Position numbers and translations under genes: made by a program. This document shows, one piece after another, positions 4,066 through 38,985 of a stretch of DNA of 64,000 nt. This stretch comes from Bryobacterales bacterium (lineage in GTDB: Bacteria; Acidobacteriota; Terriglobia; Bryobacterales; UBA6623). Each line of letters begins with the position of its first letter. Position 1 is the stretch's first letter. The notes under the pieces are model-generated. The model searched no databases. It saw only the letters and a program-made list of their open reading frames with translations, and was not told where the DNA came from. The stretch covers positions 6,331,658 through 6,395,657 of the forward strand of contig OZ252099.1 in assembly GCA_965248305.1 (NCBI GenBank), given 5' to 3'.

Positions 4066-5178
4066 ATGCTTGCAACTCGAGAGCCGAGATGGCTGCTGCC
4101 GGGGCTCATGGCGGCGGCGCTTCCACTGTTTGCACAGCCCCTGAACGTCTTCGACCACGTCCCGGAAGCGTACCTAGGCGCGGGTGTCTGCGGATCCTGC
4201 CACGCTGAGCAGTTTGCGAGCCAGTCCGCGAGCGGCCACGCTCTGTCGCTGGCCCGTGTAGCCGATCATCGGCTCGCGGCTTTATTCGTGCCGGCCGGGT
4301 CGCTGGCCCGAGCAGGCGGGGCCGAATACTCGTACCGCACCGACCACACCGGCCTCCACGTGGAGGTCGCAGTAGGCGGGGAGCAACTCGGCTTGCGGCT
4401 CGAGTGGGCATTCGGGGCGGGCGAGCAGGCGGTAACCTTCGTCGGCCATCCGGACAAGGACCGCTATGTCGAGCACCACTTCAGCTACTACGCGCCAACC
4501 GAATCACTGGCGACGACGCCGGGACATCGCGACGTGCCAGCTCGTGGCCCCGAGGACGCCCTAGGTGTGTACTACCCGACGTTTGGCCCCGAGCCCGCCA
4601 TCATGCGCTGCTTCCAATGCCACTCCACCGGGCCGCTGGCGCTCGGTGACGACGGATTCTCGCTGCAGCCGCGCGAGCTCGGGATTCGGTGCGAAGCCTG
4701 CCATGGCCCGGGCCGCCGGCATGTCGAGGCGATTGCTTCCGGCGATCTGGAGCAGGCGCGCGCGGCCGTCGACAATCCTGCCCGACTGGGGGGCGGCGAA
4801 CTGCTCCAGTTTTGCGGGGCTTGCCACCGCCCGCCGGCCTCAACCGGGGAAGTGATCGACTGGAGCGATCCCTGGAATGTCCGGCACCAGCCCGTCTATC
4901 TCTCCCGGAGCGCCTGCGTCCAGCCGAGCGGGCAGGCCCTGGCATGCATGCGCTGCCACGACCCACACCAGCCGCTGTCGCGCGAAGCGGCTCGCGACGA
5001 CGGGCGCTGTCTCGACTGCCACGCCGATCGTACTCCCCCCGTCGCAATCTGCCGCCAGGCCTCGGGCTTGGCATGCGCGTCCTGCCACATGCCGTCTGTG
5101 AAGCCGCAGGGCAACCTGCGGTTCACCAACCACTGGATCGGCATCTACGACCGGGACAGACCGCTTCGGCCGCGTTGA
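4066..5178 (+). CDS. Secreted multihaem c-type cytochrome (seven CXXCH motifs)
   Basis: ORF 4042..5178. The ATG at 4066 gives MLATREPRWLLPGLMAAALPLFAQP, which looks like a signal peptide. Seven haem-binding motifs are readable: CGSCH, CFQCH, CEACH, CGACH, CMRCH, CLDCH, CASCH. Confidence 0.85.
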   Translation: MLATREPRWLLPGLMAAALPLFAQPLNVFDHVPEAYLGAGVCGSCHAEQFASQSASGHALSLARVADHRLAALFVPAGSLARAGGAEYSYRTDHTGLHVEVAVGGEQLGLRLEWAFGAGEQAVTFVGHPDKDRYVEHHFSYYAPTESLATTPGHRDVPARGPEDALGVYYPTFGPEPAIMRCFQCHSTGPLALGDDGFSLQPRELGIRCEACHGPGRRHVEAIASGDLEQARAAVDNPARLGGGELLQFCGACHRPPASTGEVIDWSDPWNVRHQPVYLSRSACVQPSGQALACMRCHDPHQPLSREAARDDGRCLDCHADRTPPVAICRQASGLACASCHMPSVKPQGNLRFTNHWIGIYDRDRPLRPR

Positions 5179-5214
5179 AGATGTCAACGGTATGCAGCGC
5201 TACCAGTTATGTAG

Positions 5215-6086
5215 CCAAGCTTGGGCAACCTGCGGTCGGGGCTCGCTGTAACCGTGCCGAACACGACGTTTTCGTCCAGCGTCGCCATCACTGAATTGAC
5301 TGGAGTCGCTTCTCGCACCGTCGGCATCTGGATCGGGTGCCTGTTCTTCGACGCGGCGTTTTGTCCCAACTTGACGGCGATGATTCTAGGTCTACCGGGT
5401 CCAGTTGTTGCGGTATACATGACAGTCCTGCTCGCACTGCTGTTCGCGATCGGTATGCGAATTGTGACCCACGACGGCCTTGACTATCGCAAGGGCGTGA
5501 TCGTGGGGCTCGCGTCTTGGCTGGGCGTCAGCTTCCAGTTCGCAGAGATCTTTCCGGAACTGCTGACCCACAATCTGGGGGCGTTGTTGGAAAACGGCAT
5601 GACCGCAGCAGGCCTCCTCGCGATCCTGATGACGATCGCCCTAGAGACGGCTGCGCCCCGAGGTCGGAAGCTCAAGACAACTCTCGAAGTCGAGTCCATT
5701 CCGAGTGTCGACAAGTTCGTGCGTCGGTTCGCCAGCGACGAACGTTGGAGTGAGGGATCGGCGCAAAACCGCCAGCGAGGAGGCGATCTTGAGTCTGTAG
5801 CCTGGCGATGCTGCCCCTGCTGAGAAGGGCCGGCGACGCCTCATTGTGGTCGTGCGTGGCGACCGCGTCGGAGCGGACATGGAATTCATGGCGGCCCCGA
5901 GCGACCACAAACGTTCAGGACCACATCGCTTGGCTGGGGCCTTGGGCCGACCAGACCCATGAAGCCCAGCTTTCGCTACGGATGCCGCGCCATTATGCCA
6001 GCTCTGTGAAACACCAGCAGCTTCACGACATCGAGATGGTTTCCATCCACGTCAAGGCTGGTCGCTCGTCGAAGCGCCAAGCCTGA
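5215..6086 (+). pseudogene. Remnant of an NCS2 (xanthine/uracil-type) permease; N-terminal two thirds missing, C-terminal part frameshifted
   Basis: GLAVTVPNTTFSSSVAITELTGVASRTVGIWIGCLFF...GLLAILMTIALE matches the C-terminal TM helices of nucleobase:cation symporter-2 proteins. The frame only opens at 5215, 37 nt after the cytochrome stop. The cytoplasmic tail continues in other frames (..EEAILSL-TAG(5798-5800)-PGDAAPAEKGRRRLIVVVRGDRVGADMEFMAAPSDH, then NVQDHIAWLG..SLRMPRHYASSVKHQQLHDIEMVSIHVKA). Confidence 0.6.
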
Positions 6087-28893: not shown

Positions 28894-31800
28894 ATGCGCT
28901 CACGCGTTCTATTGATTTCATTGCTAATTTTGCTCACAGCAGCACCATTGCTGGCGCAGATCAACAGCGGGACAATTCTGGGCACGGTCCGGGACAGTCA
29001 GGGAGCTGTCATCCCAGGTGCGGATGTTGCGGTCACCAACACAGATCTGGGGGTGTCCGTCGACCTGAGCACGAACGAAGTCGGCGTGTTCCAGGCTTCC
29101 GGCCTTCGGCCGGGGCTTTACGAGGCGCGCGTCGAGTCCCCAGGGTTCAAGGTTGCAATCAGAGATGGGATTCAACTTGCGATCCAACAGCGTCTTGAAA
29201 TTGGGTTCACCCTTGAAGTTGGCGATATCACCCAAGAGGTCAAGATCGTTGCCGCCCCCGTGGACGTGGAAGCGGAGAGCGGCCAGCTGGGCACCGTCAT
29301 CACAGGGGATACGATTGCGGACCTGCCGCTGGACGGTCGTCGCTACTCCGACCTGATCCTGCTGAGTCCGGGCGCGGTCCCGGCCCCGGGAGCGGGGTCC
29401 AATCCCCGCGAAGCCAGAATCAACGTCGATGGCAACTTCTCGCTGCAGAACTACTTCGCCCTCAATGGGGTGGACAACAACACGTTCACGACCAACGCCC
29501 AGGAGCGCAGCCCGCAGGCGGTCCAGCCGCCCCCCGACGCGCTGCAATCGTTCAAGATCCAGACGCGGACGTACGACGCCGAGTTCGGCTGGAGCCAAGG
29601 TGCGGTCATCAATGCCGAGATCAAGTCGGGCGCCAACAACATCCATGGATCCGGCTGGTATTTTCATCGCAATGACAAGCTGAACGCCAACAACTTCTTC
29701 AACAACGCAGCTGGCGTGGAGCGCGGCGTCGAGAGCCGCAACCAATACGGATTCACCGTGGGCGGACCGGTCGCGCAGAATCGAACGTTCTTTTTTGCCG
29801 ATTATCAGCGCACGGACGCAAGCAAGGCCGGTGGCTCAAACGGCACGGTTCCAACGGCTCAGATGAAGCGCGGCGTTTTCACCGGGGACCGCGACCTAAA
29901 AATCACTCGCGATGCGAGCGGCCAGCCCTTCTATCCAGAGATCGTGCCTTGCGTGGACGAAGTTAACGATGTCCTCAATCTCACGGCGAACCGAACCGAC
30001 GGGCGGCCTTGCGCGGACGCTGCTGGCATGGCTCTGGTCGAGCTGTATCCGGAAGCCAACTCGGGGAAGTTCGGCTACCAGTCCGCTCTCGATGTGCCCT
30101 TGGAGCAGAACTCCTTCGATGTCAGGATCGACCACAATCTCTCTGACAAGGACGTCTTGTACGCGTCCTACAGCTTCCTCCAGACCGATACCATCGTCGA
30201 GCAGGGCCCGTTCCCCAATCCGCTGGCGACCGGCGGCTTCACCGCCAACAGCTATGTCCGCGGGCAACTCCTTGCGCTCACTTGGAATCGAATCTTCAGC
30301 CCGTCTGTATTTAACAGCCTTAGATTCGGATTCAATCAAATCTATTCGACGTCGGATCCGGTTGCCCCCGAGGGTGACGTCGGGCCCGAATACGGCTTGA
30401 ACTCGCTCCCTGGTACGTTCGCTTACGGTCTCCCTCCGATCCGCGTTGACGGCTACACGATTCTCGGAACCTCCGAGTGGAGGCCCCAGTTCCAGGTGTC
30501 GAAGGTCTTTCAGCTGCTGGACAACCTAAGCTGGATTAAGGGGAATCACTCGCTCAAGTTCGGGTTCGAGTACAAACGAGCCCTGAACGACTATCTGGAC
30601 GTCAGAGCGCCCAATGGCGCCCTACGTGTTCCCAATTGGTTTATCGGTGACGGAGTCGCCAACCTGCTGCTGGGCACGATTCGGGAAATCCGGTCCACCA
30701 CGGCGCTTGTGCCCGAAACCTACACCGACGGTGTGATGTTCTATGTCCAGGACGCGGTCAAGGCCAGTTCCAAGCTTACGCTCAACTACGGCGTCAGATA
30801 CGAGTACTTCACCCCGATGCTGGAAAAGAATGACCTGATGTCCAACTTCGATCCCAGCGCGAATGGTGGCAGGGGGGCGTTGATCACGGCCAATTCGAAT
30901 CTTGGTCAAGTCCCCTGCGACTTCGAATGCGTGCAGCCAGTTCGGGGAGACGGTATTTTCGGCAGGGCTCTGGTCAATCCCGACCGCAATAATCTGGCTC
31001 CCCGGTTGGGAGCGGCTTATCGCGTCTCGGACAGGACCGTCATCAGGGGCGGCTATGCGATCTTCTACCAAGCGATCGATCGGATAGGGAGTTCCGCCGC
31101 CCTTCCGCTGAATCCACCCCAGTTGATTGAATTCCGCGGCTTCAGAGCCTCGGCCTCCAGGCCGTCATCGGCGTTGCTGCGTGATCCTTTCCCTGCGGGC
31201 ACCAGCGTATTCAATCCCCAGACGATCGATCTCCGCAGCCGCAGCTTCGACGGCACGTCCCCCTGGTCTCAGCAGTACAGCTTCGGGTTCCAATTCCACC
31301 TTAAAGAGAACCATCTGATGGATATCTCGTACGTGGGTGGAGACTCCAACAGGATCCGCAAGCTCCAAGCCCTCAACCAGGGCTACGTGCATCCGGACGG
31401 GCAGGTGTCGCGGCCCTTCCCGGACTGGCCGCGGTTGAGCGACCATTTGGCCAGCAACGGCAACGCCAATTACAACGCCCTGCAGGTGAGCCTGCGACGC
31501 GCCATGAGCGGAGGCTTGGCCTTCAACATGAACTACACGTGGAGCAAGGCGCTGGGAGACACGCAGGACAATCTCTCTGGCGGAGCATCGGCTAATCTGG
31601 TCCGGCCTCAGAACGCCTATGACCTGAAAGCCGACTATGGACGGCTGGTCTTTGACCAGAACCATCGGTTCGTCATGAACTGGACGTGGCAAATCCCGTT
31701 CGGAAGCGACGGGTCCGCGCGGCACCTCTTGGGCGGCTGGCAATTCAACGGCATCTGGAGCTCGACTTCTGGCACGCCTATCGGGATCAGCGGCCCCGAC

Positions 31801-32178
31801 CGCAGCGGAACGGATAGCCAGAACGCTCGTGCAGACTGTGTCGGTGACCCGCAGGGACCCAGGACCGTCGAGCAATTCTTCAACACAAGCGCTTTCGCTC
31901 CGGCTCAGTTCGGGACATTCGGCAACTGCGGAGTTGCCAGCTTGAGCGGCTGGCCACATCACAACATGGACCTTTCCCTGTTCAAGAATTTCGGCTTGGG
32001 TTTCAGCGAAGACGCCAAGGTGCAGATCCGGTGGGAGTTCTTCAACGCCTTCAACACGCCGCAGTTCGGCAATCCGAATCGGAGCGTGACCAATGGTCGG
32101 TTCGGCCGAACGACCGGTGTCTTGGATCCGCAGAGAGAAGGCCGCGTGATCCAGTTAGGACTGAAGTTCATCTTCTAG
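28894..32178 (+). CDS. TonB-dependent outer-membrane receptor with CarboxypepD_reg domain (paralogue type of 7..3477)
   Basis: ATG at 28894 after a GAGGAGG RBS. Signal MRSRVLLISLLILLTAAPLLAQ, then GTILGTVRDSQGAVIPGADVAVTN..GLYEARVESPGFK. Barrel ends ..RVIQLGLKFIF. Confidence 0.9.
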   Translation: MRSRVLLISLLILLTAAPLLAQINSGTILGTVRDSQGAVIPGADVAVTNTDLGVSVDLSTNEVGVFQASGLRPGLYEARVESPGFKVAIRDGIQLAIQQRLEIGFTLEVGDITQEVKIVAAPVDVEAESGQLGTVITGDTIADLPLDGRRYSDLILLSPGAVPAPGAGSNPREARINVDGNFSLQNYFALNGVDNNTFTTNAQERSPQAVQPPPDALQSFKIQTRTYDAEFGWSQGAVINAEIKSGANNIHGSGWYFHRNDKLNANNFFNNAAGVERGVESRNQYGFTVGGPVAQNRTFFFADYQRTDASKAGGSNGTVPTAQMKRGVFTGDRDLKITRDASGQPFYPEIVPCVDEVNDVLNLTANRTDGRPCADAAGMALVELYPEANSGKFGYQSALDVPLEQNSFDVRIDHNLSDKDVLYASYSFLQTDTIVEQGPFPNPLATGGFTANSYVRGQLLALTWNRIFSPSVFNSLRFGFNQIYSTSDPVAPEGDVGPEYGLNSLPGTFAYGLPPIRVDGYTILGTSEWRPQFQVSKVFQLLDNLSWIKGNHSLKFGFEYKRALNDYLDVRAPNGALRVPNWFIGDGVANLLLGTIREIRSTTALVPETYTDGVMFYVQDAVKASSKLTLNYGVRYEYFTPMLEKNDLMSNFDPSANGGRGALITANSNLGQVPCDFECVQPVRGDGIFGRALVNPDRNNLAPRLGAAYRVSDRTVIRGGYAIFYQAIDRIGSSAALPLNPPQLIEFRGFRASASRPSSALLRDPFPAGTSVFNPQTIDLRSRSFDGTSPWSQQYSFGFQFHLKENHLMDISYVGGDSNRIRKLQALNQGYVHPDGQVSRPFPDWPRLSDHLASNGNANYNALQVSLRRAMSGGLAFNMNYTWSKALGDTQDNLSGGASANLVRPQNAYDLKADYGRLVFDQNHRFVMNWTWQIPFGSDGSARHLLGGWQFNGIWSSTSGTPIGISGPDRSGTDSQNARADCVGDPQGPRTVEQFFNTSAFAPAQFGTFGNCGVASLSGWPHHNMDLSLFKNFGLGFSEDAKVQIRWEFFNAFNTPQFGNPNRSVTNGRFGRTTGVLDPQREGRVIQLGLKFIF

Positions 32179-32186
32179 CTGACGTT

Positions 32187-32221
32187 GCAGCGGGCGGGCC
32201 GTCGCGAGGCCCGCCCGCTGC
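32187..32221 (+). terminator. GC-rich hairpin after the second TonB-dependent receptor (probable terminator, no U-tract)
   Basis: GCAGCGGGCGGGCC-gtcgcga-GGCCCGCCCGCTGC, a perfect 14-bp stem starting 9 nt after the stop. Confidence 0.45.
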
Positions 32222-32425
32222 CAGCACCGCAACAGGCACCTGTAGTCCGGTGACGTTCGTTGTGCAGTGCATCCCATAAGTGGCTGATTAGTAGTCAGTT
32301 ATTACTCATTTCGGACACCTCAGCCAGTCAGAACGCCTTGCGAGATCCGCGCCCTTCCCGGATGCAATAGGGGAATCGAAAGCGGAAACCACACGGGGCA
32401 CACAACGCGAAGAACCAAGCCCCGT

Positions 32426-32713
32426 GGCCGCCATCCCGACAAGGCCCTCTCGGACGCCTTCGTCCGCTCCACCCGGCAGGCACTGCGACGCAACGGCTTG
32501 TACCTCTTCGTCCAGCCCTGCGGAACCCGTAGGTGTGTCCAGCGCCTCGTCATCCGAGGCCGGAAACGCAAACTCGGACTCGGCAGCACGGCGCTGGTTT
32601 CGCTCGCCGACAAGCGCCCGGTCCGGAGTGTTCCCACGTTCGCCGACACCGCAACCGCCTTGGTCGAGCAGAAGCGATCCGGCTGGCGCAACCCCGAGCA
32701 GACAAGGGACTGG
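32426..32713 (+). pseudogene. N-terminal remnant of a P4-type tyrosine integrase (arm-binding DUF4102-like region)
   Basis: GRHPDKALSDAFVRSTRQALRRNGLYLFVQPCGTRRCVQRLVIRGRKRKLGLGSTALVSLADKR..VPTFADTATALVEQKRSGWRNPEQTRDW matches the conserved start of DUF4102/phage-integrase proteins. It has no start codon, an internal gap, and loses similarity after RDW. The catalytic domain is absent. Confidence 0.7.
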
Positions 32714-32847
32714 CGTTGGAAAAGGCCATCGTCACGTGTAAGCCGGGCAGCAATCGAAAGGCTGGTTTGCGCTTACATGTCGACGCGACGCGGTGACAGC
32801 GGGTCGGCCTGCAACTCCCGATTTCCTACAGTGGTCCCCAGTGGGCG

Positions 32848-33264
32848 TCAGTCGACAGGACGTGGACGCCACTGCGACGCGACCGCCAGCTCCTGTGCGT
32901 GTCGAGTCTGCTCTTCCCGATCCATCTTGGCGAAATCTGGCAGCACGATGTCGCCATGATACGGATTCCTCTTGGGTATGGGCGTGGCCACCACGTCGCG
33001 GCCGTTTCGGCGCGCCACTCCGGCGTCCACTGCCGCCCAACCGTAGAACGTGCGACAGCGCTCCGCAGCGGCGGCCTCCGCCAAGGCAAGAACCTCGGAT
33101 TGCGGTGCCACGCTGAGCTTGTCGACGGAGATGCGGGTCTCGCCCTGCCTGGTCAGGAAGACATGGTGCGGAATGGTTGACCGCAGAGCGCGGTTGGCAT
33201 GCCTCTGCGAAAAGACACTCCATCCCAGCTCTTCATCAAAACCGATTTTCGGGGAAATGCTCAC
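32848..33264 (-). CDS. Hypothetical protein (138 aa), downstream partner of a coupled ORF pair
   Basis: The GTG start overlaps the upstream stop (GTGA). The sequence is protein-like (..RISVDKLSVAPQSEVLALAEAAAAERCRTFYGWAAVDAGVARRNGRDVVATPIPKRNPYHGDIVLPDF..). I could not name a family. Confidence 0.5.
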   Translation of the reverse strand: MSISPKIGFDEELGWSVFSQRHANRALRSTIPHHVFLTRQGETRISVDKLSVAPQSEVLALAEAAAAERCRTFYGWAAVDAGVARRNGRDVVATPIPKRNPYHGDIVLPDFAKMDREEQTRHAQELAVASQWRPRPVD

Positions 33265-33617
33265 GAAGCCTGATCCGGGAAGTCCAGATCACCGAGGGCT
33301 TCCCGGACGAAGCCGTCGGGCAGCGTGGCGGCGGTGGAGTACCGGGCGCGGCGATGCTGGCCGCTCAGGTTGACCGAGCACAGGACACCGCCGTCCGAGT
33401 CGCACAGCACGAGCACCGACTGCCCTCGCCCGCCCGGCGCGACGAGGGCAGTCTCCCCGTCCGGCGTCGGATACACTTCCAAGCGGGAGGGGCGAAGCCT
33501 GTAGAGATCCTGTAGCAGGAATCTAGCGTTCTTCAGCGCCAATTGGGACGGTTGCGGGAAGCCCTCCTCCCGTGCTTCCTCGGCTGCACCTTCGAGATCG
33601 CACAAGGAGGCGCTCAA
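33261..33617 (-). CDS. Hypothetical protein (about 115 aa), upstream partner of a coupled ORF pair
   Basis: Only TTG starts are available (33617 or 33605). The sequence ..FPQPSQLALKNARFLLQDLYRLRPSRLEVYPTPDGETALVAPGGRGQSVLVLCDSDGGVLCSVNL.. is protein-like. 4-nt overlap with the downstream ORF. Confidence 0.45.
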   Translation of the reverse strand: MSASLCDLEGAAEEAREEGFPQPSQLALKNARFLLQDLYRLRPSRLEVYPTPDGETALVAPGGRGQSVLVLCDSDGGVLCSVNLSGQHRRARYSTAATLPDGFVREALGDLDFPDQAS

Positions 33618-33897
33618 TTCTCGGCGGCCGGTGGCGGCTCGGCCGAAGTGACCACCGCCTGGCTCTGTCCCGGCGGCAGTACGAGGGAGAAGAACGCTAG
33701 CTGCAACAGTTGGGACGGTTGCTGTATGTCCAAGCTCAAGACATTATCGAGCATCTGGGTCTCTTGAGGAGGGGGACCACTGAGTCGTCGCCAGAATTCG
33801 GCTGCCCCTGCGTTCGTTGGCAGCAGCGGGTCCTGTGGGCTCCTGACGATCATCTGGCCGATCGCGCCGGGGTTAGCCGCGTGCGGCTGACCCCTTC

Positions 33898-34158
33898 TCA
33901 GCCATCGTTCATTCTATCCAACGACGCGTGAGGTTGTGCATCTGATTTCTGGTTCTGCCAGCCCTTTTTCTGACCGTTTCTGACGGGTTCTGCTCTCGCT
34001 TTCTCCAATAAACAGGAATTCAACACTCCGATGAGCTTCGCCTTCGCGGCTCCCCACGCCTTCCACGGGACCAGTATCGGCCCCGCCATCGCCCCGATAC
34101 CGCTGGCGGCATATTTCACGAGCAGGTCGAACGCAGGGACCTTCAGGTTCACATCCAT
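33898..34158 (-). CDS. Small hypothetical ORF (86 aa), possibly an N-terminal fragment
   Basis: ATG at 34158 preceded by GGAAGGG. MDVNLKVPAFDLLVKYAASGIGAMAGPILVPWKAWGAAKAKLI.. in a locally lower-GC stretch. It resembles the N-termini of DUF2806-like proteins from memory only. Confidence 0.3.
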   Translation of the reverse strand: MDVNLKVPAFDLLVKYAASGIGAMAGPILVPWKAWGAAKAKLIGVLNSCLLEKARAEPVRNGQKKGWQNQKSDAQPHASLDRMNDG

Positions 34159-34388
34159 CGTCGTTAGGACCCTTCCACGTTCATCAGCCGCCGCCGGAAT
34201 TCGTAGAGCAACGCTTCGACCTGCACGAGAGCTTCGCCGCAGTCGAGCGGTCCGGCCCCCATATCTTGGGTATCTTAGCGGAGTTGAACGGCATAGCAGC
34301 CCGTTGAAAAAGTCGGGTCTTTGATGGCGGAAGCGGGTTGGGGCTTCCAAGGCCATCCGTAGAGTCTCAGGCCGCGACCGAGTGAATT

Positions 34389-35040
34389 TCACGCGAGTTT
34401 CGCAGCAATCGCGCCACAAGGCCCGGAAACGGGCCGGAATTGCGCGAAATGGCCGTTTTGAGCGCCGATAACAGCAAGGCTCGCTCCGCTCCCTTGCAGG
34501 CTTCGTGGCGTACCGATCCCCGTCAGGGACCGCATTAACACGCCCAGATTGTAGCCGCACGCGTGGATCAGCACCCGCTTCTCCACATTCGCGCGCCCCC
34601 GTAGCCAGACCCGTCGCAGCCCCCCCGTCGCGTACATGTGGGCCATTGACCGCTCGGCCTTCTCCGTCCGCAGCTTCGCCAGGGCCTTGCCCTGCAAGCT
34701 GGCCGCCCGCTCCTGATTCCGCTCGTACCACTGCTGCGCGGCCGGCTTGCCCTTCCAGTTGCGCTGCTGCCGTTGCGGCTCCGCACCCGTCGCCGCTACC
34801 CGCTCCAGCGTCGCGTCGCTGTGATAGCCCTTGTTCAGCACCACCTTCTGGGGCGCTTGCCCCTGGGCTGCCTCCACCGCTGCCAGCGTCTTGGGCAGAC
34901 TCTGTGGGTCGCCCAGATCGGCTCTCTGCACCGTCACCGCCACCAGCGCTCCGCTGTCCAAGTCCACCGCATGCTCGGCTTTGTAGGCCAGTAGGGCCCC
35001 CGCGTCGTACCGTCGCGGACCATTCGGGGTTGAAACACGC
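34389..35040 (-). pseudogene. C-terminal fragment of an IS5/IS1182-type DDE transposase
   Basis: ..LAYKAEHAVDLDSGALVAVTVQRAD..VVLNKGYHSD..EKAERSMAHMYATGGLRRVWLRGRANVEKRVLIHACGYNLGVLMRSLTGIGTPRSLQG.. carries the DDE-region and YREK-like hallmarks. The N-terminal half is absent. Confidence 0.7.
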
Positions 35041-35330
35041 CTCCTCGCGTATCATCAGTGGTAGGCGGGGGCCCGGCAGTCACGCCCCCTTCAGTCATTC
35101 GTGCCCATGCCCCAAGGCCAGTCTGGGTCCGAGCGGGCCATCATTCATTGGCGAGGCCTCCCCGGAGGCTCTCCCCCAAGCCAGAGTCCACAGTTCACGC
35201 CACCTCGGGCCGGCGCCGCCCGCCCCTGAGCCCCGCTCAGGCACAGCACGGGACTCCGCCACGGGCCGTCACAGCCCGTGGGGTGGGGGGGTGGTCTGCC
35301 CGCCGGCCCTCAAAAGCGCCGCAGGTGTTT

Positions 35331-35417
35331 CAAGCGGCTGAAGGGCTTCCTAGAGGGCGACTACGTGTTGGTTCTCGGTTTATTCCGGCCCAAAACGGCC
35401 ATTTTTTCTCGAAATAA
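35331..35417 (+). pseudogene. Second short tail fragment of the same transposase family, in opposite orientation
   Basis: QAAEGLPRGRLRVGSRFIPAQNGHFFSK-stop parallels ..GIGTPRSLQGSGASLAVIGAQNGHFAQF.. of the 34389-35040 fragment. The shared DNA core is CAAAACGGCCATTT. Confidence 0.4.
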
Positions 35418-35600
35418 TTTGGCCGATGATTACATGTAGATCAGAATATTCTGACAACGATCATGACATCGGAGTGCTCGCAAGTACCGTTTCTACAGCG
35501 CATTCAAGTAGGATCCGCCGCACTACTTCTTTCGGCAGGAGCAAATAGTGTGAGAATTGATGATTCCCTACCGCCGGATTAATCCGGGGATTTTACATCT

Positions 35601-36002
35601 GTGCAAACTGAGCGCCTACACTACGAACGCCTCATCCAGCAGATTGCTGGCACCGTTGCACCTGACGCTTCCGCCGAACCCGCCACAGTCGGTGCCGTTC
35701 GTGTCACCCCAAATACGCTGACCGAAGCGTCCAATCTGCTCGCGCAGCATCAGGAGCCGGAACGCTCCCGGTTCTTCGAGCCGCTCGGGGTTCTCATCGA
35801 GAACAGCAAGGAAATCGTCGTTGCCAGCGTGGAAGGCTCCCGAACCGCCGCGTTCGCGAGACTCGGACTGACCGACGCCGCACTCTTGGAGGTCGCGTCG
35901 CCAGAAACTCCCCCGCTTACTGTCGACGTCAACTTGTACCACGCGGTTGCGAAGCGGGGTCACCGGGCGGCTGTGAATTTCCGCCATCTACTGCCCCTGT
36001 GA
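35601..36002 (+). CDS. Hypothetical protein (133 aa), possibly the C-terminal part of a PIN-like nuclease
   Basis: GTG start after an AT-rich stretch. ..FARLGLTDAALLEVASPETPPLTVDVNLYHAVAKRGHRAAVNFRHL resembles the LTxD end of PIN-type toxins, but no N-terminal acidic motif is visible. Confidence 0.35.
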   Translation: MQTERLHYERLIQQIAGTVAPDASAEPATVGAVRVTPNTLTEASNLLAQHQEPERSRFFEPLGVLIENSKEIVVASVEGSRTAAFARLGLTDAALLEVASPETPPLTVDVNLYHAVAKRGHRAAVNFRHLLPL

Positions 36003-36017
36003 CATTACCGACACGAG

Positions 36018-36167
36018 TCACGGCGCCCAGCCGGCAGACAGGATCTCAGCCTGCTCCAGCACCGTCCGCGTGGCTGCCTCCTGCCTATCCGGCGGATAGC
36101 CGTACTTCCGCAGGACGCGCGTCACGGATGCACGAGATTCACCCATGATCCACTCGACCGGGCAGCT
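36018..36167 (-). pseudogene. C-terminal tail remnant of a type I restriction enzyme R subunit (HsdR)
   Basis: ..[40 protein letters not shown]-stop is the characteristic HsdR C-terminal (DUF3387-type) ending. The open frame is only 49 codons. Confidence 0.6.
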
Positions 36168-36285
36168 TCAAATCCGGTACAGGAACCGTCTCGAATCGGG
36201 GATTCTTCATCAACCTGCTAAGCGCCGCCGACTCACGTGATTGACGGGGACTGAGCAGCCGTCCGAAAATCGATCAGAGGAACCT

Positions 36286-37584
36286 ATGGCAGCGACGCTT
36301 GAAAGCTTCTTCAGTCTGGCCCAGCGCGGCACTGACGTGCGGACAGAGGTGAGGGCGGGTGTGACGACATTCCTGACGATGGCCTATATCGCCTTCGTCA
36401 ACCCCCAGATCCTCTCCGAGGCTGGCATGCCGTTCGACGCGGTGTTCGTTGCCACCTGTCTGTCCGCTGCGTTCAGCACCCTGGTGATGGGGCTGTACGC
36501 CAACTACCCGATCGCGCTGGCCCCGGGCATGGGACTCAACGCGTTCTTCGCTTACGGTGTCGTCCTCGGTCTGGGCCACACCTGGGAGGTCGCGCTCGGC
36601 GCGGTCTTCGTCTCGGGTGTGCTGTTCCTGATCCTCAGCATACTGCCGGTGCGACGCTGGATCATCGAAGCGATCCCCCAAGGACTGAAACTGGCCATCG
36701 TGGCCGGGATTGGCCTCTTGCTTGGGGTCATCGCGTTGCGCAACGCCGGCATCATCCAAGCCGGCGAAGCGACACTGGTCACCGCCGGTGAGTTGATGAC
36801 GCCTGGGCCGGTGTTGTCCCTGCTCGGTTTCTGCACAATCGTGGCGCTGTCGGCGCGCCGTGTGCCCGGCGCTGCGATCATCGGGATGCTGGGTGTCGCC
36901 GGTGCCGGTCTCGCTCTCGGTGTCTCTGAGTGGCAGGGCATCGTGTCGCTACCACCTGATCCGACGCCGACGCTGCTGGCCCTAGACATCGCAGGGGCGC
37001 TGCAGGCGGGCATGATTGTGGTCATCCTAGCGTTCCTCATGGTCGACTTGTTCGACACGACCGGGACGCTCATCGGTGTCGCACACCAGGCGCAGCTTCT
37101 GGACGAAGGCGGACGTCTACCGGGCATGCAAAGAGCGCTGATCGCCGATTCGACGGGCACGATAGGCGGCGCCCTGCTCGGCACCTCCCCGGTGACGAGC
37201 TACATCGAGAGCGCAACGGGTGCCAGCGCAGGTGGGCGTACGGGTCTGACCGCAGTTGTGGTCGCCGGGCTGTTTCTCTCCTGCCTTTTTCTCGCGCCGC
37301 TGGCCGGGTCCATACCACCCCAGGCGACGGCAGCAGCCATCCTGTATGTCGCATGTCTTATGGTGCGACCACTGGCAGAGCTGGACTGGCGCGACGTCAC
37401 CGAGGCCGCCCCCGCCGTCATGACCGGGATCGCCATCCCGTTGACGTTCTCGATTGCCGACGGTCTCGGCCTCGGCTTGCTCACCTACGTCTTGATCAAG
37501 GTGTTAGCGGGACGCCGGGGTGAGTGTTCGCCGACATTAATCGCGGTGGCATTGCTCTTCGCCGTGAAGTTCGCCTGGCTGTAA
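36286..37584 (+). CDS. NCS2-family purine (adenine/guanine/hypoxanthine, AzgA/PurP-like) permease
   Basis: ATG at 36286 after AGAGGA. FSLAQRGTDVRTEVRAGVTTFLTMAYIAFVNPQILSEAGM.., many TM helices, ..SYIESATGASAGGRTGLTAVV.. Confidence 0.9.
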   Translation: MAATLESFFSLAQRGTDVRTEVRAGVTTFLTMAYIAFVNPQILSEAGMPFDAVFVATCLSAAFSTLVMGLYANYPIALAPGMGLNAFFAYGVVLGLGHTWEVALGAVFVSGVLFLILSILPVRRWIIEAIPQGLKLAIVAGIGLLLGVIALRNAGIIQAGEATLVTAGELMTPGPVLSLLGFCTIVALSARRVPGAAIIGMLGVAGAGLALGVSEWQGIVSLPPDPTPTLLALDIAGALQAGMIVVILAFLMVDLFDTTGTLIGVAHQAQLLDEGGRLPGMQRALIADSTGTIGGALLGTSPVTSYIESATGASAGGRTGLTAVVVAGLFLSCLFLAPLAGSIPPQATAAAILYVACLMVRPLAELDWRDVTEAAPAVMTGIAIPLTFSIADGLGLGLLTYVLIKVLAGRRGECSPTLIAVALLFAVKFAWL

Positions 37585-37747: not shown

Positions 37748-38470
37748 TCACCGAAGTGCCCTGACGAATTCCGCCGCGCGCTCAGCGAATTCCGGAATCA
37801 CCCACCGCGGCGGGCTACGCTGGATACTCGTGTGGCCACCGAAATCCCCGAACACCTGCTGCATCTCCGGCGAGAGTCTGTGCAAGAAGCCGCCGCTCCT
37901 GTTCTTGCCAACCGAGCTAATGCGCCGGGCCTGCTGCAGCAGCCTGCTTCCGGTAGCACCCTTCACTAGAACCAAACGACCCTTTTGATCTTCGAAGACG
38001 GCCCGGTGCCTGACATGAAAGTTGTTCCCGAACATTTCGGTCAGCTCTGCATGGCTGAACGACTCTGCCAAGCCGGCATTGGCGACCTGGAAGTATCCGA
38101 CGATGTACAGAGCTGGTGCGCAATCAAAGTCCCAACCTTGGAGACCGGCATAGAACACCAGTAGGCTGCCCTCGTCGAGCCGTCTCAGAGAATTCTTGGG
38201 GCGGGTTGGATCGCCGTACGTGAACGTCTCAAACTCTGGATCGAAGTGGACGGATTGGTCGTCCATCTTCGTACGACGGCTCTTCGGAAAGTACCCAACC
38301 AACCGCTGCCCCTTTCGAGACAACGTGTTTCCATATGTTCGTTCGTCAACACCCCGACCGCCGAAGTGGTCCGGGATTGGAATGTACTCGAATGAACCGT
38401 CGCGGAATAGCGGGCCATGAATGCCCCCAGACCCAGTGTCTATCCCGACTCTCAGCAAGACTACATGCAT
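37748..38470 (-). CDS. Hypothetical protein (240 aa); N-terminus reminiscent of Nmad3-type predicted nucleotide-modification proteins (unverified)
   Basis: From the ATG at 38470: MHVVLLRVGIDTGSGGIHGPLFRDGSFEYIPIPD..LLVFYAGLQGW..ALYIVGYFQV..FHVRHRAVFEDQKGRLVLVKG. 10-nt overlap with the upstream ORF. GC is lower than the flanks. Confidence 0.6.
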   Translation of the reverse strand: MHVVLLRVGIDTGSGGIHGPLFRDGSFEYIPIPDHFGGRGVDERTYGNTLSRKGQRLVGYFPKSRRTKMDDQSVHFDPEFETFTYGDPTRPKNSLRRLDEGSLLVFYAGLQGWDFDCAPALYIVGYFQVANAGLAESFSHAELTEMFGNNFHVRHRAVFEDQKGRLVLVKGATGSRLLQQARRISSVGKNRSGGFLHRLSPEMQQVFGDFGGHTSIQRSPPRWVIPEFAERAAEFVRALR

Positions 38471-38985
38471 CGTTTGACAGGCGGTGCCGCAGGATCGCAC
38501 CGGGTGTGTCCCTGCCGCTGGGGCGGCAGGCGAGGATGACATCCGCTCGACGGGTGCGGCGCGCCTTGATACCGGCATTCAGCGAACCTCGAAGGCGGAC
38601 ACTCCTTATATCGCCGTACGAGCTCGTCAACCTCGCATTGAACCTCGAGCGGCAGGGAGTCCGACTTCCGTGCCCGAACCATGTGCGTCGCAAGGAGCGG
38701 CGCACATTCGCCGAGTAGCGGTCCCTGATCGTCCATAAGACAAAAGTGGTCGAACGTCACGTGTGGTCCGCGGTAGCCCGGTGACCGGTGCTTATGCGGC
38801 CGGATTCCTACCCACGTGAGCCGACCAGCGATCCCCTCCGAGCCCCGATCCGGGCGATCCACGCCGACACCCAGCACGGCATCGTAGTGCCAGGAACGGT
38901 CTTGTCCCATGCAGTCATTCACGCCGAAGATCCCGCACTGGCAAGGATCACCAACATGCGTTCGACGATAGATGAACACTCTCAA
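38461..38985 (-). CDS. Hypothetical protein (174 aa) with Cys/His-rich tail
   Basis: TTG at 38985 with AAGAGGG 7 nt upstream. (M)RVFIYRRTHVGDPCQCGIFGVNDCMGQDRSWHYDAVLGVGVDRP..GIAGRLTWVGIRPHK..GPHVTFDHFCL.. No family recognised. Confidence 0.55.
   Translation of the reverse strand: MRVFIYRRTHVGDPCQCGIFGVNDCMGQDRSWHYDAVLGVGVDRPDRGSEGIAGRLTWVGIRPHKHRSPGYRGPHVTFDHFCLMDDQGPLLGECAPLLATHMVRARKSDSLPLEVQCEVDELVRRYKECPPSRFAECRYQGAPHPSSGCHPRLPPQRQGHTRCDPAAPPVKRCM

Follow-up and report, generated by a model that had tools for sequence, protein, structure and literature searches.

X-A-B, a candidate toxin-antitoxin-like cassette of three unannotated gene families, represented by a shortened copy in a Bryobacterales genome

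The locus and its open reading frames

The subject of this analysis is a pair of small adjacent genes, here called A and B, on the minus strand of a 64,000-nucleotide stretch of DNA from a Bryobacterales bacterium (contig OZ252099.1, positions 6,331,658 to 6,395,657; hereafter the window). A preliminary description, made from the sequence alone, had presented them as a translationally coupled module of two or possibly three small open reading frames (ORFs), resembling a toxin-antitoxin (TA) or defence pair of no recognizable family. As described below, A and B recur together in about 10 phyla and belong to a larger unit, X-A-B, of which the third member, X, is missing from the window.

The three minus-strand ORFs are all present, with products of 118 (A), 138 (B), and 79 amino acids (ORF C; Table 1). 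The peptides that had been quoted for A and B are correct, and both short overlaps that had been claimed, GTGA between A and B and TTGA between C and A, can be read in the sequence. As the window has a G+C content of about 62% and holds many shadow ORFs, the coding status of these candidates needed testing. Comparison with six related loci gave ratios of nonsynonymous to synonymous substitution rates (dN/dS) of 0.24-0.39 for A and 0.18-0.34 for B, and by this measure both are genuine genes under purifying selection. The high G+C content and the many shadow frames, which also occur upstream of A in two other loci (L072 and L060), would be compatible with A and B being chance open frames. That reading is already refuted by the results: A and B have hundreds of homologs, their dN/dS ratios (0.18-0.39 together) are far under 1, both yield confident structure models, and their order and adjacency are kept across phyla, including in genomes of about 40% G+C. 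On these grounds, the earlier judgement that they are real proteins rather than shadow ORFs holds.

Table 1. Features of the X-A-B remnant and its surroundings in the window
Feature	Position	Strand	Remarks
Gene B	32848..33264	-	138 amino acids, GTG start; full length; candidate effector (toxin), predicted
A core	33261..33617	-	118-amino-acid ORF, TTG start at 33617; candidate neutralising partner of B, predicted
ORF C	33614..33853	-	79 amino acids, ATG start; third ORF of the preliminary description
GTGA	33261..33264	-	Stop of A overlaps GTG start of B; translational coupling
TTGA	33614..33617	-	Apparent C/A overlap, read from the sequence
2-bp GA insertion	33619..33622	-	GAGA in the window, GA in relatives; splits long A into ORF C and ORF A
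Remainder of the variable tail at the N-terminus of long A	33623..33895	-	Contains ORF C; start codon and first ~18 codons missing
Sigma-70-like promoter match TGCACA-18-TAGAAT	33911..33940	-	Just upstream of the shortened tail; consensus match only, weak
DDE transposase fragment	34389..34967	-	Pfam DDE_Tnp_1_6 and DDE_Tnp_1; stands at the position of X in complete loci and marks the truncated 5' end of the operon

ORF C is not a gene: it belongs to the N-terminal tail of a longer A, a fast-evolving region that an insertion cuts off here. In a 97%-identical relative (P0047), the frame reads straight through C into A ('..TSAEPPPAAELSASLCDL..'; '..PPAAELSASL..'), and in a DNA alignment the window has GAGA at a site where five conspecific assemblies and the more distant relatives L001 and L007 have GA. 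The stop of ORF C and its apparent TTGA coupling to A both result from this +2 insertion, which may be a true mutation or an assembly error, as the sequence fits either. The supposed third coupled gene is thus the product of a window-specific event inside one gene, rather than a conserved junction.

A and B are paired across bacteria

A profile scan with A against one genome per species of the Genome Taxonomy Database (GTDB) found 127 relatives; A-centred counts given here refer to the best 79 loci. These loci come from Vicinamibacterales, Bryobacterales, Nitrospirales, Latescibacterota, Gamma- and Alphaproteobacteria, Rhodothermales, Binatia, Dehalococcoidia, Caldilineaceae, and Spirochaetia. 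Two further samples were centred on B (16 loci, made up of 12 metagenome loci and 4 look-ups) and on X (6 loci).

In 65 of the 79 A-centred loci, from about 10 phyla, A is followed immediately by a B-like sequence, and in 46 this B is intact. Seen from the other side, an intact A core stands directly upstream of B in all 16 B-centred loci, including a pair that is 42-47% identical to that of the window. The spacing between the two genes is at most 25 nucleotides in 38 of 45 intact pairs, and in 24 of these 45 the stop and start codons overlap by 4 nucleotides (GTGA in 12, TTGA in 9, ATGA in 3). The A-B pairing is obligate. The recurrence of the 4-nucleotide overlap across lineages bears out the translationally coupled pair of the preliminary description, and the check for co-occurrence that it had proposed found conserved pairs from both sides.

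The two genes decay asymmetrically. Next to the 79 intact A cores, 46 loci have an intact B, 3 a frameshifted one, and 16 a partial remnant; B is absent in 14. At locus L109, X and A are intact and B is scrambled by stops; the sister copy L108 is intact. All 6 X-centred look-ups contained an intact long A, and no intact B without A was seen among the loci found. A broken B beside an intact A is the pattern expected if B is harmful and A protective.

As a separate observation, a gammaproteobacterial metagenome-assembled genome (MAG) contains two copies of a short A (L031 and L035, both on OY761822.1), each followed by only the first 34-54 codons of B; the same kind of truncation is found twice.

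The complete form has three genes

In 32 of the 79 loci, A is preceded by a gene for a protein of about 235 amino acids, which we call X. Its conserved stretches read '..VVLVAxSNNPSIINPDFLRYNxIVD..VPHVPYxAIGINPKG..LFQANIHRD..', and its stop codon typically overlaps the start of a long form of A by 4 nucleotides. Long A consists of an N-terminal tail of 103-211 amino acids and the core of 115 amino acids. Across relatives, the A core is found either as the C-terminal domain of such a longer protein or as a stand-alone protein of about 124 amino acids, and the short form is typical of lineages without X. At least 90 open codons precede the A core in 32 of 32 X-positive loci, versus 14 of 47 X-negative loci (Fisher p = 2e-11). 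The natural unit comprises three genes, X, long A, and B, with A-B as its constant core. The two-gene module of the preliminary description is therefore not the full unit; what the window holds is a shortened remnant without X.

The tail of A is essentially unalignable between lineages, and its dN/dS is 0.42-0.69. Among 19 loci, including ones from genomes of about 40% G+C, its frame contains 0 stops in 2,423 codons, compared with 56-111 in each other frame. As the frame stays open while the sequence is unalignable, we take the tail to be both translated and fast-evolving. In several tails, the residues directly ahead of the core form a common '[DH]FPV[RQL][LF]' element.

X belongs to a family with 276 relatives, all unnamed and none with Pfam domains. 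No match to X was found in Pfam, NCBIfam, PADLOC, or PDB sequences, and profile-profile comparison revealed no similarity to either A or B. At E <= 0.1, none of the 5,027 models of PADLOC-DB v2 matched X, B, the A core of the window, ORF C, or two of three long A proteins. The third long A gave a hit to PDC-M32A (E = 0.03, 11 bits), which was taken as noise.

Relatives of X were also detected on cyanobacterial plasmids, with E-values against the hidden Markov model (HMM) of 1e-40 to 1e-50; searches of plasmids found no relatives of A and B. On plasmid NZ_CP016487.1 of Picosynechococcus sp. PCC 8807 (L105, 4254-6004), the X homolog is followed by two genes encoding hypothetical proteins of 197 and 146 amino acids. 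This trio lies between hsdR and hsdS of a type I restriction-modification (R-M) system, with HepT/MntA and VapC close by. It was not accepted as a homologous operon: the first gene is homologous to X (E = 1e-50), but the other two stay within noise against the A and B HMMs. Their sizes, their order, and some motifs recall A and B, and the trio could represent a highly diverged form of the cassette, in an organism that is cultured and tractable.

Several other candidates for members of the cassette were set aside. X-like matches in L002, L004, and L005 were discounted, as they were due to an over-long query ORF. The apparent presence of A as C-terminal domain of giant proteins (1,470 amino acids in L072, 854 in L060) was rejected because the upstream parts are Arg/Gly-rich shadow frames, with higher G+C at first than at third codon positions (GC1 > GC3) and overlapping genes in other frames. 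At L052, a gene for a 235-amino-acid protein (4981-5688) lies directly upstream of a long A; it has 17% identity to X and no NCBIfam or PADLOC match, and may be a functional substitute for X.

Families, conserved residues, and predicted folds of A and B

A word-indexed search returned 46 clusters of B homologs, and an exhaustive profile search 843 representatives at 50% identity; nearly all are stand-alone proteins of 130-150 amino acids. Homologs of A form at least 209 clusters. Neither A, B, nor ORF C matched Pfam, NCBIfam, or PADLOC, even at E <= 1, and none of 104 diverse relatives of B matched Pfam. PDB sequence-profile searches, carried out for A and, at two depths, for B, returned noise only; a TRIM21 B-box-like stretch (E = 0.14) was treated as such.

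AlphaFold modelled both proteins with confidence. The model of B (pLDDT 92.5, pTM 0.83) has the order b-a-b-a-b-a-b-b-a-b, and that of A (pLDDT 92.4, pTM 0.84) consists of three helices, a five-stranded antiparallel sheet, and a C-terminal helix. With Foldseek, no significant match was found for B in the PDB (best E 0.93, TM < 0.3) or BFVD, or for A in the PDB. For B in particular, no sequence or fold match to RelE/ParE, MazF/CcdB, PIN, HEPN, RES/ART, Fic/Doc, GNAT, Zeta, or HipA emerged from Pfam, NCBIfam, PADLOC, PDB, and Foldseek. A comparison of B with an RNA 2'-phosphotransferase of the ADP-ribosyltransferase fold (TMq 0.36, E = 0.8) is not significant and too weak to use. The statement in the preliminary description that neither protein can be placed in a named family agrees with all of these searches, including the fold comparison that it had suggested.

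Ser46 and His103 are the sole invariant residues of B across the 104 diverse family members, and Gly14, Arg15, Asp48, Arg49, Trp76, and Asn100 are at least 90% conserved among them. In a set of 37 relatives, Asn100, His103, and Ile106 are invariant. The N-P-Y-H-x-D-I motif that had been singled out earlier is thus a real signature of B, since His103 is invariant and Asn100 is at least 90% conserved in the wider family.

In A, the alignment shows a set of invariant polar residues (E55, S67, C72, C80, N83, and the run H88-R-R-A-R-Y), and its core is 51-92% identical across phyla. Mean pairwise identity is highest for the A core, at 0.65, compared with 0.50 for B, 0.44 for X, and 0.18 for the A tail. 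Neither A nor its tail contains a Pfam or NCBIfam domain, and the model of A is not a DNA-binding fold; a Phd domain is added to A only in a single fusion (P0159).

Genomic context, fusions, and habitat

Outside the defence operon described below, there are no conserved neighbours around the cassette, and one genome has two copies, as in mobile TA cassettes. Among the 145 nearest flanking ORFs at the 79 loci, most of those with a Pfam match are unrelated housekeeping genes, and the island location noted for the window does not extend to the cassette as a general property.

In three independent cases, the A core is fused in frame to a component of a known TA system. In a member of the Dehalococcoidia (L063, 4240-6780), it extends the C-terminus of a full-length DarG, with DarT directly upstream and B downstream; in P0159, to a whole Phd/YefM antitoxin; and in L099 (2-1393), to a truncated HepT, downstream of MntA. 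The 3' end of other TA operons looks like a recurrent landing site of the cassette. In L063, the Macro domain that precedes A was considered as a clue to ADP-ribosylation by B and dismissed, as it is part of a complete DarG accompanied by its own DarT.

Some copies are found among defence genes. Three diverged X-A-B copies (X identity 0.42-0.69) lie between genes for an SNF2/NOV_C helicase and a DUF1156 methylase, where they adjoin AAA_15/21 ATPase and ApeA genes. Other copies are near type I R-M, TIR, ImmA/IrrE, and TA genes.

The phyla that carry the cassette match typical sponge consortia. Eight of the 12 B-centred metagenome contigs come from the sponges Petrosia ficiformis (LXNJ), Sarcotragus foetidus (LXNI), and Aplysina aerophoba (MKWU), and no B-centred contig came from the seawater assembly of the same study (LXNH) [PMC5099237]. 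In addition, several MAGs carrying the cassette bear names of the SB06xx or PNG..._C_bin series, which are listed among sponge-associated genomes (PMC7883664). Defence genes are known to be abundant in sponge microbiomes (PMC5099237, PMC5649159).

State of the window copy

No X-like sequence was found anywhere in the 64,000 nucleotides of the window. Upstream of the A core, positions 33895-33644 match residues 19-104 of the long A of L001 with 50% identity in the frame of ORF C (tblastn). As no X-like sequence is present and the match begins at residue 19, X and the start of long A are gone. In their place stand an orphan ORF of 86 amino acids (34158-33898, minus strand) and the DDE transposase fragment. 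The 5' truncation is shared by five conspecific assemblies, indicating that it is fixed in the lineage, and the transposase fragment is also present in conspecifics.

B of the window is full length, and has Trp15, Lys49, and Val128 in place of the near-invariant Arg, Arg, and Asp of the family. B of the conspecific P0001 shares Trp15 and Val128 and keeps Arg49. These changes may be inactivating for the presumed effector. The most fitting description of the window copy is that of a decaying remnant in which the A core is intact and B possibly disabled; given the loss of X and of the 5' end of A, the +2 frameshift, and the Trp in place of Arg15, it is probably attenuated or dead. A single sigma-70-like match was found in the region; it lies just upstream of the shortened tail and could drive transcription of what is left.

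An Rfam scan of positions 31500-36500 gave no match. The adjoining stretch of gene fragments (33898-36240) includes a 133-amino-acid ORF of no family (35601-36002, plus strand). Within the same stretch, a 42-amino-acid fragment of the C-terminus of a type I restriction R-subunit is called in conspecific assemblies, and one conspecific (L093) has an IS110 insertion. Further away, the ORF at 37748-38578 (minus strand) matches Nmad3 (nucleotide modification associated domain 3; E = 4.5e-31); this gene is called as 276 or 172 amino acids in different conspecific assemblies, and may be polymorphic or decaying. In another conspecific (L096, 7089-10374), a neighbouring TonB-dependent receptor is split into parts of 605 and 494 amino acids, either as a pseudogene or through an assembly error.

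Proposed role of the cassette and alternative explanations

We consider it nearly an even call that the X-A-B cassette works as a TA-like module, in addiction or abortive defence, that has spread horizontally. Under this proposal B, an alpha/beta protein with invariant Ser46 and His103 and near-invariant Arg15, Asp48, Arg49, and Asn100, would be the harmful effector. The A core, made just before B from one message, would bind and neutralise it. X and the tail of A would form an optional regulatory add-on that is gained and lost as a whole; because the two co-occur in this way, X probably acts on the tail, as a regulator, sensor, or stabiliser of A. We infer the toxicity of B, its neutralisation by A, and the role of X on several grounds: B decays beside an intact A, A is fused to DarG, Phd, and HepT, some copies lie in defence operons, the cassette has no fixed address, and A bears a weak structural resemblance to small binding proteins. 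The resemblance to TA or defence modules proposed in the preliminary description gains from the decay of B only, the fusions to TA genes, and the copies in defence operons, while its two-gene scope and general island location are not retained.

More tentatively, X-A-B may be an undescribed tripartite conflict system, acting in addiction, abortive defence, or both, and built from three orphan families. B would then be a new effector enzyme relying on a Ser/His pair with conserved Arg and Asn, A would be its inhibitor, and X would read or protect the hypervariable tail of A. Such a system would have moved by horizontal transfer through at least 10 phyla, concentrated in sponge and probably coral holobionts.

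Several observations weigh against a TA-like role. B matches no known toxin family, by sequence or by fold, and A has no recognisable DNA-binding domain of the kind usual in classical type II antitoxins. Toxins are usually more conserved than antitoxins; here the identity of the A core exceeds that of B in 164 of 171 pairs, which is the reverse of the usual situation and hints at a constrained function of A's own. The cassette is flanked mostly by housekeeping rather than defence genes. A, B, and X were not found in 2.9 million viral contigs, nor A and B on plasmids. Finally, loci centred on A are biased towards retention of A, and the B- and X-centred samples that balance them are small and consist of fairly close relatives.

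The roles of A and B might also be reversed, with A as the toxin and B as antitoxin or immunity protein. Of the two proteins, A is better conserved, which is usual for toxins, and the toxin gene comes first in some TA families, such as higBA, hicAB, and mqsRA. We regard this as very improbable, however: A is intact in 33 loci in which B is broken or gone, and in L109 as well, which would be lethal if A were the toxin. In addition, A is fused to the antitoxins DarG and Phd, and an intact B was never found without A. A larger departure would be a complex of X, A, and B without any toxicity, serving a cellular or symbiosis-related role in host-associated bacteria, with A as its functional core. 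The unusual conservation of the A core across phyla agrees with this, as do its invariant polar residues, which exceed the needs of a simple binder, its persistence on its own in many genomes, the skew towards sponge-associated lineages and metagenomes, and the mostly housekeeping flanks. Such a complex fails to explain the patchy spread over many phyla and sites, the frequent pseudogenisation of B only, the fusions to DarG, Phd, and HepT, and the positions in defence operons, and there is no conserved metabolic or regulatory neighbour; we therefore think it rather improbable.

Another explanation overlaps with the TA-like module and departs from it chiefly in what selection would favour: a dedicated anti-phage system of three components, in which X senses infection, the tail of A is regulated or targeted, and release of B aborts the infection. 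Consistent with this are the three diverged copies in the helicase/DUF1156 cargo slots, the copies that adjoin R-M, TIR, ImmA/IrrE, and TA genes, the relatives of X carried by cyanobacterial plasmids, including the one flanked by hsdR and hsdS, and the abundance of defence genes in sponge microbiomes. The fast-evolving tail of A (identity 0.18, dN/dS 0.4-0.7) moreover looks like an arms-race surface. None of the PADLOC models matched, though, most flanks are housekeeping genes, and many lineages keep A-B or A alone without X. On balance, we find a dedicated anti-phage system unlikely, and favour the TA-like module as the working interpretation.

If the role proposed for this module is true, the TA and defence repertoire gains a toxin family, a neutraliser family, and an accessory component, all of them new and listed as 'hypothetical' in every database checked. 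The cassette also offers a concrete, testable way to trace gene exchange between phylogenetically distant bacteria living in one sponge host; the dense defence and TA content of sponge communities is a known yet poorly resolved feature. The window copy itself is a modest result of ordinary decay, and is valuable mainly as a pointer to the family.

Comparison with known systems

The cassette has most in common with type II TA systems. The genes are small, adjacent, co-oriented, and translationally coupled, with the presumed protective gene first. They are likewise scattered, horizontally spread, and sometimes present in multiple copies, and the presumed toxin is lost preferentially, leaving orphan partners. 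Unlike the usual antitoxin, A has no helix-turn-helix (HTH), ribbon-helix-helix (RHH), AbrB, or Phd/YefM DNA-binding domain, and it is better conserved than B.

A second parallel is found in toxin-antitoxin-chaperone (TAC) systems, composed of HigB, HigA, and a SecB-like chaperone, in which the chaperone acts on an extension of the antitoxin. In the X-A-B cassette, too, the third gene is optional and strictly accompanies an extension of the presumed antitoxin that is poorly conserved. This strict link between X and the hypervariable tail of A suggests a regulatory principle like chaperone addiction, assembled from unrelated parts: the extension is N-terminal and measures 100-200 amino acids, and X, which is the first gene of the operon, does not resemble SecB in sequence. 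None of X, A, and B falls in a known toxin, antitoxin, or chaperone family.

The fusion in L063 invites comparison with DarT-DarG, which combines a toxin that ADP-ribosylates DNA (DarT, DUF4433) and a macrodomain antitoxin (DarG). In L063, the A core is joined to DarG; DarT and DarG are separate genes that pass the NCBIfam cut-offs, and the adjacent B has no match to the DarT model. A matches neither DarG nor Macro, and A and B of the window match none of these. The fusion looks like a cassette that landed beside another TA locus, rather than a sign of shared mechanism.

In structure, the best whole-domain neighbours of A are SycT (PDB 2bsh, 2bsi; TM 0.46) and CdiI (PDB 6cp9). Like A, these are compact helix-plus-antiparallel-sheet proteins of about 115 amino acids, and each binds one partner protein. 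The matches are not significant (TM 0.36-0.46, E 0.5-0.9), there is no sequence similarity, and the invariant polar residue set of A is not present in these binders.

Finally, three X-A-B copies occupy a slot that in R-M-like loci also holds defence-operon cargo such as ApeA and AAA_15/21 ATPase pairs. These are a minority of X-A-B copies; most lie between housekeeping genes, and no PADLOC model matches the cassette. Taken together, these comparisons place X-A-B outside the known families, as a module of three unannotated families that, judged by its sequence and gene arrangement, appears to behave like a TA system of the type II or tripartite kind.

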